A stretch of 32,000 nt of DNA from Promethearchaeota archaeon (GTDB lineage Archaea; Asgardarchaeota; Lokiarchaeia; Sigyniarchaeales; Promethearchaeaceae): NCBI GenBank assembly GCA_016933055.1, contig JAFGBS010000034.1, positions 144,727 to 176,726 on the forward strand. Direction: 5' to 3'. The notes under the pieces were generated by a model, which did no database searches, was not told the DNA's origin, and saw only the letters and a list, made by a program, of their open reading frames with translations. Of this stretch, positions 16,356 to 28,246 are shown one piece after another. The translations under genes and the position numbers were made by a program. Numbering within the stretch: position 1 is the stretch's first letter; every line of letters begins with the position of its first letter.

Positions 16356-17273
16356 ATGCAAATTATTTCAGTTTCAGGTGGTAAAGGAGGCACAGGTAAG
16401 ACATTTGTTGCAGTAAATTTAGCTCTTTACCTAGCCACTAAAAAGAAGAACGTACTCTTGATGGATTGTGATGTTGAGAATCCGAACACAAATATTCTAC
16501 TAGGTAAGACCGATCTTTCAGAATTTGAATCCGCTGAAATATCTCATTTTGTTCCCAAGTTTGATGAAAATAAGTGCACAAAATGCGGTAAATGCGCACA
16601 AGTATGCCGTCCCCATGCTATTTTTCAAATAATAAACCAAATTCCACTTTTAATGCAAAATCTATGTACTTCTTGTGAGCTATGTTATCGTGTTTGTCCA
16701 GATGATGCAATCATTCCATCATATGAACCTCTTGGAAAAATCTACCTTAAAACTATAAGAGTACAAGATACTTCCTTAGATTTAATGGTAGGAGAATTAT
16801 CTGTAGGACAAGTGCAAGCAGTAAAAATTCTTGAAAGAATGTATAAGAAATTAGAGAAATTGAACGCTACCCATAAATATGATTATATAATAACAGATTC
16901 TGCACCAGGAGCACATTGCGATGTGGAATTTGTTATAAAACAAAGTAAATATGTATTATGCGTAACTGAACCAACACCTTTTGGAATACATGATTTGAAA
17001 CGAATCCTAGAGTTATCTAACATAGTACAACGAAATACTTTTGTGATTATGAATCGTGCGACCATTACTGACTATCCATTGAATAATTTGGAAAAAGATC
17101 ATAATACACATATCATAGCATCTATCCCCTATGATCTACAAATTATGGAATCATATGCTCAAGGTATTCCCTTCCTGTTCTATAAATTGGCGGAAGAGAA
17201 ATCCTCTAGTAAAATTGCGATTGAAAGCATTGGACAATTTGTTGTACAAAAGGAGAAAAGTACATATGATTGA
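16356..17273 (+). CDS. MinD-superfamily P-loop ATPase with inserted 2x[4Fe-4S] ferredoxin (COG1149)
   Basis: Motifs SGGKGGTGKT, DCDVENPN, CTKCGKCAQVC, CTSCELCYRVCP, DSAPG and VTEPTPFG.HDL. Confidence 0.9.
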   Translation: MQIISVSGGKGGTGKTFVAVNLALYLATKKKNVLLMDCDVENPNTNILLGKTDLSEFESAEISHFVPKFDENKCTKCGKCAQVCRPHAIFQIINQIPLLMQNLCTSCELCYRVCPDDAIIPSYEPLGKIYLKTIRVQDTSLDLMVGELSVGQVQAVKILERMYKKLEKLNATHKYDYIITDSAPGAHCDVEFVIKQSKYVLCVTEPTPFGIHDLKRILELSNIVQRNTFVIMNRATITDYPLNNLEKDHNTHIIASIPYDLQIMESYAQGIPFLFYKLAEEKSSSKIAIESIGQFVVQKEKSTYD

Positions 17274-18198
17274 AAAAACGAAAAAAAGATCCACTTTCCA
17301 AATTGGGCTCATCTCTGGAAAGGGGGGGGTCGGTAAAACCTCCATTAGTTCCTCTTTCGGAGTAATATTTCATGAATTGGGAAAAAAGGTTTTAGTTGCT
17401 GATTGTGATGTGGATGCTCCAAATCTGGGGTTATTATTTCAATCCGGAGAGGTTTTGGAACAGAAAACTGTGCAAACGACCGAAAAATCCTTATTTCTCC
17501 CAGAATTATGTATACAATGTAAGAGATGTGTAGATGAAGAATTTTGTAAATTCAATGCTCTTAGTTGGGATTCCTCGATAAATATGCCCGTTGTAGATTC
17601 AATAGCGTGTGAAGGTTGCGGTGCATGTTATGAGTTATGTCCCGAACATGCTTTTGAAATTCATGCAATTGATAGCGGGACAATCTCTCATGAACGTACA
17701 AAATACGGATTTGATCTTGTTTGGGGGGAAACTCGATTAGGTGCGCAAACTTCAGGAAAATTAGTAACCGAAATCAAGAAAATTGTAAATCACACTATAG
17801 AAGCTAATAATCTTGAATTGGCAATTATTGATGGTCCTCCTGGAATTGGGTGTCCCGTGATAGCCACTGTGACTGATTTAGATTATGTTATCGTGATCGT
17901 TGAACCCACATCGACTGCATTGCATGATGCAGATCGCGCAATACAGATGCTCAACCAATTACGACGTAACTATGGAATTGTTATCAATAAAGCAGATATG
18001 TGGAAAAGTGGTTATGATATAATCGTGAATTACGCAAAGAAACATGATATTGAAATTTTAGGAGAAATACCAGTGGATATGACCATTCCTCAGGCGATTG
18101 TAAATGGACTTCCTGTATACACCTTTAATCCGCAATCCCCCTCAAGTAAAGCACTAAAAATAATCACTCGAAACATCGTAAACCATTTTCTATCGTAA
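17266..18198 (+). CDS. Second MinD-superfamily P-loop ATPase with inserted ferredoxin (COG1149)
   Basis: Motifs SGKGGVGKT, DCDVDAPNL, CIQCKRC, CEGCGACYELCP and DGPPGIGCPV. I moved the start from 17131 to the ATG at 17266, which follows AAGGAG and overlaps the upstream stop region. Confidence 0.9.
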   Translation: MIEKTKKRSTFQIGLISGKGGVGKTSISSSFGVIFHELGKKVLVADCDVDAPNLGLLFQSGEVLEQKTVQTTEKSLFLPELCIQCKRCVDEEFCKFNALSWDSSINMPVVDSIACEGCGACYELCPEHAFEIHAIDSGTISHERTKYGFDLVWGETRLGAQTSGKLVTEIKKIVNHTIEANNLELAIIDGPPGIGCPVIATVTDLDYVIVIVEPTSTALHDADRAIQMLNQLRRNYGIVINKADMWKSGYDIIVNYAKKHDIEILGEIPVDMTIPQAIVNGLPVYTFNPQSPSSKALKIITRNIVNHFLS

Positions 18199-21727: not shown

Positions 21728-21814
21728 GAAAATCAGACTTGAAAAACCCGGGCGGGTCGTCCACGTTCCCGTTCAGTTTAGGAAACGCTTCATCCCATTC
21801 CAAGTTTGATTTTC
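21728..21814 (-). promoter_or_regulatory. Eukaryote-like SECIS element (selenocysteine insertion sequence) of vhuU
   Basis: The minus strand reads A-UGA-A (21793-21789), then GCGUUUCC, a loop UAAACUGAAC, GGGAACGU and G-GA-C (21762-21759). This gives tandem G.A/A.G pairs, an 8-bp upper stem and an apical AAA. Below the core, GGG/CCC, ACUUGGAA/UUUCAAGU and a perfect GAAAAUCA/UGAUUUUC pair can form an extended lower helix. Confidence 0.85.
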
Positions 21815-21939
21815 TTGTCGTGTAGCACATCTCCGCTTTCATCTACAACGGTTAAATGTGCAGCACACGAAAGTCAAGGATCATAACAGCGTATGATCAT
21901 TTCGAGTAGATTTGTTATTTTTTCGTCTATTTCAACCAT
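21790..21939 (-). CDS. vhuU: VhuU: selenocysteine-containing small subunit carrying the C-terminal Ni-binding motif of the [NiFe(Se)] hydrogenase (49 aa precursor)
   Basis: Not in the ORF track. My translation is [49 protein letters not shown], with in-frame TGA at 21874-21876 in the first-Cys position of DPCxxCxxH. There is an AAGGAG upstream, the gene starts 17 bp after the vhuA stop, and a SECIS follows. Confidence 0.93.
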
Positions 21940-21956
21940 TTTTTCAACACTTCTCC

Positions 21957-23270
21957 TTATTTAACCCATGGATCGGGTAGTTTAATGCTTTTCAAGGCAT
22001 CTTGTTCAATAATTTGCTTTGCAACATGAGTCACCAGCTTATCAATACCACCGAGGTTGTGATTTGTGGCCACAAGAAGGTTTGCTTTGCGACATATTCC
22101 CTTTTCATCGCTTGTTAAATCGTAGATCAACGTTCCTCGGGGGGCTTCTACCATACCAACACCTCTCCCAGCTATTGGTTCGACATCCATTGTTTTAATA
22201 TCAGTCGAAACGATGTCCGGATCTTTTAAGAGATTTCCTATGTTCTCAATCGCAGCAACAGTCTCGATTATTCGAGCCCAGTGGAAAGCAAACACGTTGT
22301 GGATTGGATTAGTGCCAATTTTATCCCGCATTTCTTTTAGTGCGGCATCTGCTAATGGTGTATTCATCCGTTCTGCTACATTAATCATTCCCAACGGTCC
22401 GGTTTGGTATACTCCCTCTGGGTATCCCACCTCTTTTATGAAAGTGTGGGTACCGTAATTATGAGAAGTTACATGCTCCCCAATGACTTCCAAATATTTT
22501 TGGGGCTTGTATCGCTTTATTTTTCCCTCGGGATTACAAATTGAGAGCATTCCGTCATGTATATCATGAGTACCATCTTCTTTAGCAACGCCTAAATACC
22601 ATGTAGGAACTACTCCCACATTTGCTACAACGTCCCAGTAATCAGTAACTACCTTAAGTGCAATCTCAACGGTTTTTTTGGTATATTCTACCTGTCGCTC
22701 CCAGTCCTTAAGGAAGAAATCTCGGTGCTCTTCACTGAACGGATTCTTCAATCCACCAGGGATTGAGACGATTGGGTGTACGGATTTTCCTCCAATGGCA
22801 GCACAGAGAGCTTGACCATATTCCATCATTTCAAGTGCCATCTTCCCCTCAGCAGGGAGATCTTTGAGAATACTCACAACATTTCGTTTCGCAGGATCAG
22901 CAAAAGGTCCGTAGATAAAATCGGGTGCTGCTAAAGCATAAAAGTGCAATAAATGAGACGAGTATTGCTTAGCTTGGAGTAAAAGTTCTCGAACTTTAAA
23001 TGCTGCAGGCGGAATCTTCACATTCCATGCGTCTTCTACAGCTTTGGTTGGTGCAATGTGATGTGGAATTGGACAGATGCCACATATCCGAGGGGTGATT
23101 CGGGGCACATGCTCCATAAATCGTCCTTCCACAAATTTCTCAAAGAAACGGGTTGTCGTAACGTTGAATTGTGCATCTAGCACTTTTTTTCCATCATCAG
23201 ATACTTTGAGAATTAATCCACCATGTCCCTCAAGTCTAGTGACAGGTTCAACTTCGTATATTTTCGGCAT
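21957..23270 (-). CDS. vhuA: Group 3c-type [NiFe] hydrogenase large subunit lacking the C-terminal L2 motif (VhuA/MvhA-like)
   Basis: Has EPVTRLEGHG, RFFEKF..GR, the L1 motif RICGICPIPH, HPIVSIPGG and VEAPRGTLIY. It ends at ...KLPDPWVK with no DPCxxC. Confidence 0.93.
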   Translation of the reverse strand: MPKIYEVEPVTRLEGHGGLILKVSDDGKKVLDAQFNVTTTRFFEKFVEGRFMEHVPRITPRICGICPIPHHIAPTKAVEDAWNVKIPPAAFKVRELLLQAKQYSSHLLHFYALAAPDFIYGPFADPAKRNVVSILKDLPAEGKMALEMMEYGQALCAAIGGKSVHPIVSIPGGLKNPFSEEHRDFFLKDWERQVEYTKKTVEIALKVVTDYWDVVANVGVVPTWYLGVAKEDGTHDIHDGMLSICNPEGKIKRYKPQKYLEVIGEHVTSHNYGTHTFIKEVGYPEGVYQTGPLGMINVAERMNTPLADAALKEMRDKIGTNPIHNVFAFHWARIIETVAAIENIGNLLKDPDIVSTDIKTMDVEPIAGRGVGMVEAPRGTLIYDLTSDEKGICRKANLLVATNHNLGGIDKLVTHVAKQIIEQDALKSIKLPDPWVK

Positions 23271-23272
23271 TG

Positions 23273-24172
23273 TTATGCTGCTCCTCCTTCAAATCTCTCT
23301 TTTATGAGTTTGGGTTTTTGTGAATGCATTTTCAATTCAATTTCATCATAAGTGTATCCCATAGCCAGAGCAAGAAGTTCTGTGAGGTAGAATATTGGAA
23401 TATCATAATCCTTCTCGAATTTCTTCTTAAGACTACGCTGATTGAAATCCATCTGTGAAAAACAAGAGGGACAAATGACGCAGAATATCTCAGCTCCCGC
23501 ATTAATAGCACTATCGAGCTTTTTCTGCAATCTTCGTAATGATACATCCTCTTCCGCATTCATTATTGCATAACCACAACATAGGTGTTCCTCTTCATAA
23601 TCTATAATGGTTGCTCCAGTTGCAGCTACGACTTTACGTAAGTTTTGAGGATTCTCATGGTCCTCTTCAGATTGCATTATTTCGACTGGTCTCATATAGT
23701 GACAACCAGTGTGACAAGCCACCTTCAATCCGGTTAACGGTTTCGTTATTTTTGCTTTAATCGCCTCTACTCCAACCTCTTCCAGCAAATAGGTCAAGAA
23801 ATGTGACACATTAATACTTCCTTTGAATTCTCTACCAACTTCTTTAAGAATTCTATTGATCTTGTTACGCTTGGATTCACTATGTTTTAGTTCATGATTT
23901 ACTACAGTGAGTGTCTGAGTACATCCATTACATAGGGACACAATATCTTTTCCTTCTGCTTCTGCTAAAGTTAGGTTTCGCGCTCCTAGACTAAGCCAGC
24001 TAGTATAATCCGAGCATTGGATGCCAATAGGATCAGGACAGCATCCAAAGGCAGCGTCTTTTGGTTTTAATTCGAGTTTCTCGAAAACCAAGCGAGCAGA
24101 TTTCTCCAAATAGGGCAATCTTTGACCAATCATACATCCTTCGTATAATAAGAATTCTTCAGCATCTGTCAT
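23273..24172 (-). CDS. hdrB: Heterodisulfide reductase subunit B-like (two CCG domains)
   Basis: Motifs GC...GCCP...CNGC and HTGCH...CCG...CPSC. Its ATG overlaps the hdrC TAA. Confidence 0.9.
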   Translation of the reverse strand: MTDAEEFLLYEGCMIGQRLPYLEKSARLVFEKLELKPKDAAFGCCPDPIGIQCSDYTSWLSLGARNLTLAEAEGKDIVSLCNGCTQTLTVVNHELKHSESKRNKINRILKEVGREFKGSINVSHFLTYLLEEVGVEAIKAKITKPLTGLKVACHTGCHYMRPVEIMQSEEDHENPQNLRKVVAATGATIIDYEEEHLCCGYAIMNAEEDVSLRRLQKKLDSAINAGAEIFCVICPSCFSQMDFNQRSLKKKFEKDYDIPIFYLTELLALAMGYTYDEIELKMHSQKPKLIKERFEGGAA

Positions 24173-24693
24173 TATTTTTTCTCCTCCTTGGGTTCTTCAT
24201 ATCCGATTTTTTTATCGAAACCGGTTGCTTTAAGGATTTTTTGGATCTCCTTCACATTTGGTTTAGGAATTAGAGGTAAGCCCATTTTATCCCGTCTTCG
24301 AGCAATCGCATCTTGTAGGGGGATTGCTTGTCCCGTTTCCATCACCATTTTTGCTTGGGATATATACGCTTCAGGTGCTAATCCCATTCTCATACTTTGA
24401 TTTTTCAAGATTGTGAAAATATCCGTGAGTACAATGTCATTTGGGCAGATTTCATCGCATAAATCGCAGGTTTGGCATCCCCATAGATTGAATTGCTTAT
24501 CTGGTTGTAAAATCATATGAGAAAGACCTAATAACCCTTGCATCACTAACGTTCGTGGATCGTATCTCTCTGGTTCTAATTCTGAAACGGGACATATATC
24601 AGTACACCTGCCACATTGATAGCAATAGTGTACTTTCTCTCCCATATGGAGGTCTATAATTTGTTTCTTTACTTCATAATTCGGTACAAACAA
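24172..24693 (-). CDS. hdrC: Heterodisulfide reductase subunit C-like (2x[4Fe-4S])
   Basis: Motifs CYQCGRCTDICP and W.CQTCDLCDEICP. TTG start with a GGAGG SD upstream. Confidence 0.9.
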   Translation of the reverse strand: MFVPNYEVKKQIIDLHMGEKVHYCYQCGRCTDICPVSELEPERYDPRTLVMQGLLGLSHMILQPDKQFNLWGCQTCDLCDEICPNDIVLTDIFTILKNQSMRMGLAPEAYISQAKMVMETGQAIPLQDAIARRRDKMGLPLIPKPNVKEIQKILKATGFDKKIGYEEPKEEKK

Positions 24694-26103
24694 CTATTTC
24701 TCCTCCTCCTTCGTGTCTTCAACATGTCCACCTAATGTGCTAGCAGCAAGTGTGAATCGATTAAATAATCCAGCTGGATCCAAGATTTTATCCATCAGCG
24801 TCTTAGGATCAGGACCGAGAGATGCATAAGTGGATAGCATTTTTGCACCCTGATCTTTAATTTGCTCTGGCGGACCATAACATCCCAAACATGGGGCATT
24901 TGCTTTATTTGGACATATAGTGCCGCATCCTGCTTTGGTTACAGGACCAAGACAGACATATCCCTCCTCTAAGAAGCATTTCTTTTTATCGGGTAATCCT
25001 TCATAATCTCGCTTAATTTCCGTATAAGTTTTATCCACAACCGACCGTTCACAAGTAGAACAAACTGATGCTTGGCTGAATTTAAAGTGCTTACTTCCCT
25101 TTAATTTCATCAATAGTAAACTAATTGTATCATCAATGATTGCAGTCCCTGTTCCGGTAAATGCCAACACTTTTTGCTGTCCTTTTTTGGTCTTGATCGT
25201 TTTCTCTTCAAAAGTCTCGGGATGTTCTGCTAATTTTTGTAATACATCTCCCGCAAAATACATAAAATCAAAATTTGCCAACCCAAGATATAATTCGATG
25301 AATTTTTGTACTGTTATGGTATCCTCTTTACTCAAACTCTCCTTGGAAGCAATCAAGTCCAATAATTGCCCCGCTCGTTTCCCTTCTGGTTTAGAAGTTG
25401 CTTGGAAGCATCCCACACATGGACCTTCTCCAGATTCGGGACACATTAACGAACATCCTCCTGCAGTAACTGGTCCGAAACATAATTCTCCAGAATCCAG
25501 AAAACATCCACTCTTATTTAATGCACACTGTATACAGACGTTCTTCTCTGCCTTTACGGCATTTGGTTTCTTCGAGAGTAGGGTTATAACATATATAACG
25601 GCTGCAACGATATTATCTGTAGTTGGTGGACATCCTGGGAGTTTCACTTCAACATCAATGAGTTGAGGAACCGTGTATAGTCGATCTAAAATTTCGGGAA
25701 CGTCATTTGGCCATTTTCCTTTCACATCAGATTCAACAACACTTTCTGCATCAACAAATTTCCTCTTCAGTAGCTCCTCTTTTTTATAGAGATTTGCCAA
25801 ACCAATCACCGAACCATGATTTGCGCATGCACCAAAAGCTACTACAATCTTGCATTTATTTCGAATGAGATAAACCATTTCTTTATCTTTCTCAGTTCGA
25901 GCCGCACCCTCGATGAATCCGACATCGACCGATCCATCGGATCTATCCTCAAGAGATTTTAGTTTGAAATCTACCACAGCAGGCCAATAAACGATATCAA
26001 ACTCAGGAATTAATGCATAAAGCTTCAAATGTGCATTTAGGAGGGATTGATGGCAGCCCCAACAAGAGGATAACTGCATGAATGCGAATGTTAATTTTGC
26101 CAT
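24694..26103 (-). CDS. vhuG: Hydrogenase small subunit (VhuG/MvhG-like), elongated, with a duplicated C-terminal Fe-S module
   Basis: Motifs SSCWGCHQS, EGA, GACA and LPGCPP. Two copies follow of VCxxC...CFL..G..C.GPVT..GC...CP.....PC.GC (about 25408-25539 and 24880-25065). 469 aa. Confidence 0.88.
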   Translation of the reverse strand: MAKLTFAFMQLSSCWGCHQSLLNAHLKLYALIPEFDIVYWPAVVDFKLKSLEDRSDGSVDVGFIEGAARTEKDKEMVYLIRNKCKIVVAFGACANHGSVIGLANLYKKEELLKRKFVDAESVVESDVKGKWPNDVPEILDRLYTVPQLIDVEVKLPGCPPTTDNIVAAVIYVITLLSKKPNAVKAEKNVCIQCALNKSGCFLDSGELCFGPVTAGGCSLMCPESGEGPCVGCFQATSKPEGKRAGQLLDLIASKESLSKEDTITVQKFIELYLGLANFDFMYFAGDVLQKLAEHPETFEEKTIKTKKGQQKVLAFTGTGTAIIDDTISLLLMKLKGSKHFKFSQASVCSTCERSVVDKTYTEIKRDYEGLPDKKKCFLEEGYVCLGPVTKAGCGTICPNKANAPCLGCYGPPEQIKDQGAKMLSTYASLGPDPKTLMDKILDPAGLFNRFTLAASTLGGHVEDTKEEEK

Positions 26104-26398: not shown

Positions 26399-28246
26399 TT
26401 AATCTAAGAAAGTTTCAAATAAAGGCGTATTATCGACAAATGGGGGAGTGCCTGCTGCTTGATCGGGTCTTAACAAGCCAATACTGTAAGGATCCTTTCC
26501 ATACACGTAATCATAGAGTTGAGTGATGTAGATCACAGGAATTTGAAAGGGTTCTTCGATCTGGTCTTTAAATATGTTGTTCACCTCTATTTGACCCAGA
26601 TCATACTGTAAATGACAGAAAGGACAGCAAGTAATAATTGCTTGGCTTCCAACGTTGCGTACATTTACCAGTTTTTCTCGTGTAAAATCCAGCGAAACCT
26701 CTTTCGCTGCTGTTCGAACTGCTCCACCAGCCCCGCAACACATATTTTTATCTTGATACGGAATGCTGTGTAATCCAATTAGATCTACAAGTTCATCAAA
26801 GAATCGTGGTTCTTCCGAAACATTATCACCCCACGGTTTAGTATCGGAAGGTTTCAATATATGGCACCCATAATGCACTGCTACGGGGATATTCTTCCAT
26901 TTCCTCCTTAAATGCTCTCGTAGCTTATCTTTCCCGATATCATAATACATTATTTCAATAATGTGTTTTACCTTTATGCTACCCTTGTATTCCATTCCGA
27001 TCTTTTTTAAATGCTCATTAACCATTTCTTTCTTCTTCGGTTGGTATTTCAACTTGTGATCGGCTTCTAGTAGTGTTCCATAGCATCCGTTACATAAAGT
27101 AATAATATCTGCCTGATTTTCCTCTGCGATGGCAATATTTCGTGCAGCTATAGTGAGCCATGTCGGGATGTCAAAAGAGCGGAATACACCTGGCGCGGGA
27201 CAGCAACTGGCACCATCCATTTCCTTGAGCTTTACGCCCAATTCATCCATAAATAAACGTGTAGCAGCCTCAATAACCGGATATCTATTGGGAATCACGC
27301 ATCCAAGATAAAGAGAGTATTCTAATTGCTCTTTATCTCCTAAATTCATTTTTGTATCCGTATGCTGCAAATTTTTATGGTTTTTAGGTGGAGATACCTT
27401 TTCGATGAAAATTGCTTTCATGTGTTCCCACCATGGCCATATACCAGGTTCCAATTCATTTGCTTTCTGATATGCGACCAAAGCGTTCTCATATTTTTTT
27501 GCTTTCTCTAACATTAGACCGTAGTTAACCCATGCATGGGGATTATCCTTTACATCAGTTTCCATAGTTTTTTTAAAAAATTCTTCTGCTTGATCAAATT
27601 TTTTTAAATCTGAATAGGCTAGGGCGATATTATGTAAAGCGGCAGGATATTTGCTAGAATCTTTAGGAATTGATTCAAGAATAGGGATGGCTTTAATGAA
27701 TAACTTCCTCTTTAATTCAATTAATCCCTTATAGAAATTTGTTATAGGAAGATATTTATTATCATCACCTATGATTTCAAGAATTTTTGTCGTTAATTCT
27801 TCTGCCCGTTCGAGTTGATTAGCACGGACTAAACATTGTAAAACAGAAATGAGAGCTTCAGGATTTTCGGGTGCTGAATCCATCGCAACAATGCAAGCTT
27901 TAACTAAATCATCTAATTCATTAAAATGCTCAAATACTTTGCTGATACCCATCCATCCCAGATAATTCTTTGGTTCGAGTTCCGTTGCTCTCTCAAACAT
28001 GCGAAATGCTTCTTGAAAATCCCCTCGTTCAATAAAAATTTCCCCCAATTTTAAGTAGGGTCCAATTTTTTTGGGGAATCTTTTATTAGCTTTGTTATAC
28101 CAGGAGAATGCTTCAATGAAATTTTCCAGACGGTGATAATACTCTGCGATTTCCATATGTGCTTCATAGTTTTGAGGATCTTTATCCACGAGGAATTCTA
28201 ATCGCTTTAGTTCCCCTTTTATAGTAGATTCAGATGCATTAGCCAT
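26399..28246 (-). CDS. TPR-repeat / HdrB-like fusion protein
   Basis: Residues 1 to about 290 are TPR-like helical repeats (A...Y.KA....P......LG). From about residue 300 there is a complete HdrB-like domain (YLGCVIPNRYP, SCCPAPG, CNGC, HYGCH, CCGAGG, CPFCHLQYD). Confidence 0.88.
   Translation of the reverse strand: MANASESTIKGELKRLEFLVDKDPQNYEAHMEIAEYYHRLENFIEAFSWYNKANKRFPKKIGPYLKLGEIFIERGDFQEAFRMFERATELEPKNYLGWMGISKVFEHFNELDDLVKACIVAMDSAPENPEALISVLQCLVRANQLERAEELTTKILEIIGDDNKYLPITNFYKGLIELKRKLFIKAIPILESIPKDSSKYPAALHNIALAYSDLKKFDQAEEFFKKTMETDVKDNPHAWVNYGLMLEKAKKYENALVAYQKANELEPGIWPWWEHMKAIFIEKVSPPKNHKNLQHTDTKMNLGDKEQLEYSLYLGCVIPNRYPVIEAATRLFMDELGVKLKEMDGASCCPAPGVFRSFDIPTWLTIAARNIAIAEENQADIITLCNGCYGTLLEADHKLKYQPKKKEMVNEHLKKIGMEYKGSIKVKHIIEIMYYDIGKDKLREHLRRKWKNIPVAVHYGCHILKPSDTKPWGDNVSEEPRFFDELVDLIGLHSIPYQDKNMCCGAGGAVRTAAKEVSLDFTREKLVNVRNVGSQAIITCCPFCHLQYDLGQIEVNNIFKDQIEEPFQIPVIYITQLYDYVYGKDPYSIGLLRPDQAAGTPPFVDNTPLFETFLD

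Follow-up and report, generated by a model that had tools for sequence, protein, structure and literature searches.

The 32,000-nucleotide window, the whole stretch of DNA that was analysed, holds on its minus strand a hydrogenase operon of the order vhuG-hdrC-hdrB-vhuA-vhuU, the last and shortest gene of which contains an in-frame TGA. The genes and signals, from the 5′ end of the operon onwards, are:

24694-26103, minus strand: vhuG, hydrogenase small subunit of 469 amino acids (Pfam Oxidored_q6; NCBIfam VhuG, 241 bits)
24172-24693, minus strand: hdrC-like gene, 4Fe-4S dicluster (Pfam and NCBIfam)
23273-24172, minus strand: hdrB-like gene with two CCG domains (Pfam CCG; NCBIfam CoB_CoM_SS_B, 255 bits)
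21957-23270, minus strand: vhuA, [NiFe(Se)] hydrogenase large subunit of 437 amino acids (Pfam NiFeSe_Hases), with its TAA at 21959-21957
21953-21958, minus strand: AAGGAG, Shine–Dalgarno-like, 13 nt 5′ of the vhuU ATG and overlapping the vhuA TAA
21790-21939, minus strand: vhuU coding sequence, 49 codons plus a UGA stop
21939-21937 and 21792-21790, minus strand: ATG and terminal TGA of vhuU (from sequence and translation)
21876-21874, minus strand: UGA, codon 22 of vhuU, the proposed selenocysteine (Sec) codon

The protein encoded by vhuA has the motif RICGIC at residues 61-66, and its C-terminal end is without DPCxxCxxH. After a gap of 17 nt follows the vhuU ORF, which, with TGA read as U, translates through the motif D-P-U-L-S-C-A-A-H. 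The best PDB match of VhuA is a 418-residue chain, 9sfi_g (408 bits), and MvhA, a large subunit that is not split, scores 321 bits (5odc_F); residues 6-422 of VhuA align to residues 5-419 of unsplit MvhA. The short peptide continues this alignment, its residues 2-29 corresponding to MvhA 422-449 (the C terminus of the unsplit protein, PDB 9sw2_F residues 422-449; E = 1.8e-9), where D-P-C-L-S-C-A-T-H matches the VhuU motif column for column. It also aligns with a 27-residue chain, 9sfi_M, that has a non-standard residue (X) at the UGA column. VhuA and VhuU together therefore span one large subunit in order, and the split between them is kept in all relatives examined. The first-pass annotation had described a minus-strand ORF of 49 codons, 17 bp 3′ of vhuA and preceded by AAGGAG, in which UGA takes the place of a nickel-ligating Cys, and had suggested aligning VhuA and VhuU together against group 3c large subunits. 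All of its coordinates and motifs are correct, the UGA does fall on the first Cys of the C-terminal nickel motif (against both MvhA and 9sfi_M), and the pair is collinear with unsplit MvhA.

Among families, the peptide fits NCBIfam VhuU best (NF041786; E = 6e-17), at 61.2 bits, which misses the curated cut-off of 70 bits; the best model for VhuA is NCBIfam VhuA, at 457 bits against a cut-off of 800. In fact the matches of VhuA, VhuU, VhuG, HdrB and HdrC all fall below the NCBIfam equivalog cut-offs, which were set on methanogen proteins, and these scores indicate that VhuA and the VhuU peptide have diverged from the methanogen model proteins. On its alignments, the peptide is thus best classed as a VhuU homologue that lies outside the equivalog threshold, with an NCBIfam model that gives no pass at its own cut-off. 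That the ORF is not a product of chance follows from the NCBIfam and MvhA E values and from the homologous ORFs, with their TGA at the same column, that almost all genomes searched within the order contain. Beyond the motif His the peptide has 21 further residues (codons 29-49), which are predicted to form a cleaved extension. By analogy, trimming would occur after His28, as the first-pass annotation had it, with the exact point uncertain by about one residue because the deposited 27-residue VhuU chain of Methanococcus terminates one residue beyond the His.

Because its best PDB and NCBIfam matches are Vhu and Mvh proteins and hdrC-hdrB genes are linked to it, the enzyme is, judged by sequence, a group 3c (Mvh/Vhu-type) hydrogenase. 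The linkage of the hdrB-like and hdrC-like genes to vhuGAU is conserved in relatives, in two arrangements. The order vhuG-hdrC-hdrB-vhuA-vhuU is common to the source's family; the neighbouring family has vhuG-vhuA-vhuU-hdrC-hdrB, with hdrC-hdrB after vhuU and beyond the SECIS (loci L063-L072). Neither hdrA nor vhuD was found in the vhu-hdr operon in either gene order. Five FlpD/MvhD-like genes occur elsewhere in the genome, one of which contains an in-frame TGA and lies about 15 kb upstream on the same contig. The physiological partner of the hydrogenase would presumably be the HdrBC of the operon, with HdrA and VhuD encoded elsewhere. VhuG itself is unusually long: the PDB chain 9sfi_I aligns only to residues 4-201 and 346-457, on either side of an insert of about 145 amino acids with a second Cys-rich module, and solved VhuG and MvhG chains have 288-308 amino acids. 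The long form is conserved across the order.

Two further regions of the window are recorded here in their own right. A 615-amino-acid protein at 26399-28246 on the minus strand, 295 nt upstream of the vhu-hdr operon, joins TPR repeats at its N terminus to a double CCG domain like that of HdrB. At 16356-18198 on the plus strand lie two adjacent P-loop proteins of the ParA/CbiA type with inserted 4Fe-4S ferredoxin domains; their called ORFs share 143 nt, and TGA is the stop of the first.

The end of vhuU coincides with a eukaryote-like SECIS of the kind named lokiSECIS, which we identified from its fold and from covariation among homologous loci:

21738-21804, minus strand: the whole lokiSECIS
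21804-21798 paired with 21744-21738, minus strand: lower helix, its 5′ strand in the last vhuU codons
21793-21790, minus strand: AUGA core, in the last codon and stop (GGA-UGA), including the vhuU stop
21788-21781 paired with 21770-21763, minus strand: helix II, 8 bp plus A.G
21780-21771, minus strand: A-rich apical loop of 10 nt
21761-21760, minus strand: GA
about 21756-21747, minus strand: small conserved CCC/GGG hairpin preceding the 3′ strand of the lower helix

Across 28-29 homologous loci, helix II is 92-98% paired, with compensatory changes in 8 of its 8 or 9 pairs. The lower helix has such changes in four of eight pairs, one of which splits evenly between C-G (11 loci) and U-A (11 loci); in the MAFFT alignment the lower-helix strand of the window itself is shifted by two columns, and its pairing was checked by eye. 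Covariation also backs the small 3′ hairpin. The structure as a whole is 90.6% paired, and none of 500 shuffles matched the observed covariation score. A search with Rfam at gathering thresholds returned neither a SECIS nor any other family in the window. As Asgard SECIS elements are apparently absent from Rfam, we built a stem-loop model (R1) of our own from the homologous loci, and this model has a second, independent match in the genome, 35 nt 3′ of another UGA-containing ORF, which argues for general use of the signal by this organism. The overlap of signal and stop has a published precedent: in Lokiarchaeota VhuU.1, the UGA stop is itself part of the SECIS AUGA (Mariotti et al. 2016, PMC4989117).

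The first-pass annotation had also proposed a search for the Sec machinery, and the genome proves to encode it. We found a tRNA-Sec with the anticodon TCA (66 bits, above cut-off), SepSecS (343 bits), a PSTK-like kinase (best family selen_PSTK, 124-133 bits against a cut-off of 290), an EFSec-like GTPase (best family selB at 230 bits against a cut-off of 242, with EF-Tu at 119 bits) and a selenophosphate synthetase, SelD (160 bits), that itself has an in-frame TGA, at G-U-S-C-K:

contig 22, 156732-157523 (L011:1486-2523): SelD, with in-frame TGA

A cell so equipped could still fail to place Sec in VhuU. The UGA might be read through as Cys or Trp by near-cognate decoding, or act mostly as a stop that leaves a non-functional 21-residue peptide, with the cell using an unsplit Cys-type MvhA in its stead, and the genome does have a complete Cys-type MvhA, together with MvhD and a protease, on another contig:

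contig 17, about 665.5-669 kb (L057, L062): unsplit Cys-type MvhA (R-A-Y-D-P-C), followed by a HycI-family endopeptidase, with MvhD nearby

We consider it very improbable that vhuU is decoded in this way. The SECIS, with its compensatory changes, is placed exactly as in published Lokiarchaeial selenoprotein genes; the Sec machinery is maintained, including a Sec-containing SelD; and the homologous position in methanogens is Sec, both biochemically and in a solved structure.

The conservation of the codon bears on a second alternative, in which the gene is really of Cys type (VhcU-like) and the TGA arose through faulty sequencing or assembly or by recent nonsense mutation, or in which the ORF is a decaying remnant. 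One relative (G016) does have a split homologue of the Cys type, reading R-C-Y-D-C-C-L-S-C-A-A-H, and unsplit paralogues also have Cys at the Sec column, the copy in the source's own genome reading F-R-A-Y-D-P-C-L-A-C-A-T-H. However, when 60 genomes of the order were searched in six frames, about 55 of them (four families, 19 genera) had a homologous ORF with exactly one in-frame TGA, in an alignment that reaches codon 49, and the TGA stands in the same column in 30 of the 30 order-level loci that were extracted. A 120-genome sample of the phylum added 18 loci from five further Asgard families with a same-column TGA and a frame open to codon 49. The codon is also TGA in an independent assembly of the same genus which, with the roughly 70 other loci across the phylum, speaks against a local error.

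The frame past the UGA appears to be translated, since pairwise differences 3′ of it are dominated by third positions (1855:573:5047 at codon positions 1:2:3), a pattern of purifying selection, and it is followed by the conserved SECIS in a genome that retains the full Sec machinery. This conservation effectively refutes an error or a decaying gene, to which we give a smaller chance still than to decoding without Sec. Two points on which the first-pass annotation had staked its reading, a TGA rather than TGY at this position, judged here across assemblies, and a reading frame conserved beyond it, are thereby borne out. A last alternative, genome-wide reassignment of TGA to an ordinary sense codon (genetic codes 4 or 25), has nothing in its favour except the in-frame TGA and is refuted by stop-codon usage, as TGA is the ordinary stop of 7 of the 30 long ORFs in the window, at positions that fit full-length homologues, vhuU itself ends in TGA, and the TCA-anticodon tRNA that was found is tRNA-Sec and not a Trp or Gly suppressor; its probability is negligible.

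The distance from the Sec codon to the stop is also conserved, at 84 nt (27 codons) in all 29 loci from the order and all 18 from the other families. We considered whether this invariance reflects a distance rule for the SECIS, a view that is weakened by two of these loci in which the stop is TAA and the AUGA lies about 20 nt further on, with the spacing from Sec codon to stop still 84 nt. Their unchanged spacing implies that constraint acts on the length of the peptide extension and not only on the spacing of UGA and SECIS. Separately, the vhuU of one relative (L040, G015:C49:18802-18945) has an extra in-frame TAA six codons past the motif His, and the GGAUGA start of its SECIS comes later and out of frame, which points to a frameshift or faulty assembly there.

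With these alternatives weighed, we hold with high confidence that the ORF is the vhuU of a Lokiarchaeial genome and encodes, as a separate peptide, the C-terminal part of the large subunit of a cytoplasmic group 3c [NiFeSe] hydrogenase, with its UGA decoded as Sec, and we infer from this the incorporation of selenium into the enzyme. The [NiFeSe] reading, put forward in the first-pass annotation, is upheld by homology, by collinearity with the unsplit protein, by conservation of the UGA and of the frame, by covariation in the SECIS and by the Sec machinery. In the mechanism that we propose, vhuG-hdrC-hdrB-vhuA-vhuU would probably be transcribed as one mRNA, on which ribosomes would start vhuU at its own Shine–Dalgarno sequence and ATG. 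The UGA at codon 22 would be read as Sec from Sec-tRNA(Sec) delivered by the EFSec-like factor, and this recoding would be directed by the eukaryote-like SECIS, the AUGA core of which holds the terminal UGA 84 nt downstream. The peptide would then dock onto VhuA, which would contribute the N-terminal Cys pair of RICGIC to the Ni–Fe centre, with Sec22 and Cys25 of VhuU as the other two ligands. After metal insertion, an endopeptidase of the HycI family would remove the extension of about 21 residues past His28, the presumed cleavage site. The sole HycI-family protease found in the genome adjoins the Cys-type unsplit MvhA, on another contig than vhuU.

A further structure is formed by the coding sequence itself, starting at the Sec codon:

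21814-21878, minus strand: long hairpin from the Sec codon, 24 bp, -24.9 kcal/mol (fold)

The hairpin is more stable than expected (z-score -4.53), none of 200 shuffles folding as well, and a similar hairpin at the Sec codon is present in a relative of the same genus. A conserved hairpin 3′ of the Sec codon found no support across the order, for which the RNAalifold consensus was -2.7 kcal/mol with one compensatory pair. In a hairpin drawn by hand for the neighbouring family, pairing reached 85.7%, compared with 84.0% in shuffles, so amino-acid conservation accounts for most of the pairing. The hairpin at the Sec codon could enhance recoding locally, or it could simply result from the codons that specify C-A-A-H and V-L-H. 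Sec redefinition elements have been described for some eukaryotic selenoprotein mRNAs. We regard as unlikely, though worth recording, the more speculative suggestion that the hairpin at 21878-21814 is a Sec redefinition element working with the 3′ SECIS, or alternatively that the flanking Cys residues act as a selenenylsulfide switch to protect or gate the [NiFeSe] site. If true, a redefinition element would give Asgard archaea one more eukaryote-like trait of recoding.

As for the flanking cysteines, the first-pass annotation had remarked on R-C-Y-D-P in place of the usual R-A-Y-D-P. Cys does replace the usual Ala here, but the substitution is not special to this locus and is common in Asgard VhuU: the residue after Arg is Cys in all but one of the 40 order-level VhuU sequences listed, and of five other Asgard families sampled, three have R-C-Y-D-C-U, one R-S-Y-D-C-U and one R-A-Y-D-C-U. 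What is more generally peculiar to Asgard VhuU is that Cys immediately precedes Sec (D-C-U), and the source's genus keeps the canonical Pro at this site (D-P-U).

The second match of the SECIS model in this genome points to another candidate selenoprotein:

contig 17, 287985-288275 (L055:1176-1466), plus strand: candidate CC/Se-motif selenoprotein ORF of about 97 codons, with one in-frame TGA

This ORF reads Y-S-S-U-C-G-S around its TGA and is followed 35 nt 3′ by the lokiSECIS match (L055 about 1501-1548, 30 bits). It fits NCBIfam NF041239, ‘CC/Se motif family (seleno)protein’, best, with a score below cut-off (E = 7e-8), and we dropped an assignment as HesB-like (Pfam, E = 0.12) in favour of this match. 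Within the source's family, 12 of 13 genomes have homologues, and all 21 matches, the source's own copy among them, have one in-frame TGA. Because the CC/Se motif family is not among the seven selenoprotein families given for Asgard archaea (PMC11227280, PMC13188914), it may be uncatalogued in this group.

Recognizing vhuU corrects the annotation of this operon. The hydrogenase without it looks catalytically dead, two of its four metal ligands being missing, and metabolic reconstructions that omit vhuU would accordingly understate both the hydrogen metabolism and the selenium dependence of this Asgard archaeon. Selenoprotein genes of this kind in Lokiarchaeota have been reported as wrongly annotated at NCBI (PMC4989117), which agrees, as does the low score of the peptide against the NCBIfam VhuU model, with the expectation in the first-pass annotation that standard gene callers would overlook vhuU.

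Among known systems, the closest is the VhuU of other Lokiarchaeota. Both lokiSECIS and VhuU were described in Lokiarchaeota by Mariotti et al. (2016; PMC4989117), and the survey of Asgard selenoproteomes by Huang et al. (2024; PMC11227280) lists FrhA/MvhA/VhuU; a review covers the same published kind (PMC13188914). The gene described here resembles these in having about 50 codons and one Sec, and in a SECIS near the gene end with the stop inside its AUGA, as in VhuU.1. Published lokiSECIS elements comprise AUGA, a stem of about 9 bp, an A-rich apical loop of about 11 nt and GA or AA after the stem, and the same elements occur here, with a helix II of 8 bp plus A.G and a loop of 10 nt instead. 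The gene differs in belonging to a different genus and in its D-P-U, whereas nearly all other Asgard copies examined have D-C-U.

The VhuU of Methanococcus voltae and M. maripaludis shares the site at which the large subunit is split, a small peptide with D-P-U-x-x-C-x-x-H, in which Sec takes the place of the first Cys in the nickel motif at the C terminus, and an extension after the His. In the solved Vhu of M. maripaludis (9sfi/9t1s; 9sfi is an entry code in the paper on the Hdr-Vhu-Fwd assembly, PMC13518236), a 418-residue chain (g) is accompanied by a 27-residue chain (M) with X at the Sec column. In contrast to the methanogen proteins, MvhA and VhuU, which have R-A-Y-D-P, the peptide here has R-C-Y, and whereas the methanogen SECIS is of the GAA_A type (PMC4989117, PMC13188914), that of vhuU is eukaryote-like. 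The operon differs from Methanococcus Vhu as well, in its order vhuG-hdrC-hdrB-vhuA-vhuU, in its 469-residue VhuG and in being without vhuD or the polyferredoxin gene vhuB. The presence of Sec-type Vhu and Cys-type MvhA in one genome parallels the Vhu/Vhc pairs of Methanococcus.

Unsplit Cys-type MvhA (5odc_F, 9sw2_F) has the same fold and active-site motifs, and VhuA and VhuU cover it in order; it is unlike them in being one polypeptide with Cys for Sec, in R-A-Y-D-P-C. More distant is HysA of Desulfovibrio and Desulfomicrobium, which, by a weak alignment, has Sec at the equivalent nickel-ligand position but is unsplit, uses a bacterial in-frame SECIS, belongs to the periplasmic enzymes of group 1 and matches VhuA at only about 100 bits.

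That a split, Sec-containing VhuU occurs in Lokiarchaeota and also in Methanococcus, as the first-pass annotation stated, is documented (PMC4989117, PMC11227280). Nothing here is conceptually new, as the combination of split Sec-containing VhuU and a SECIS with the stop in its AUGA was published in 2016 and catalogued across Asgard archaea in 2024. To these accounts the present analysis adds the invariant 27-codon distance from Sec to stop, the Pro before Sec in the source's genus, the association of hdrCB with vhuGAU in two gene orders, and the CC/Se motif family as a lead.
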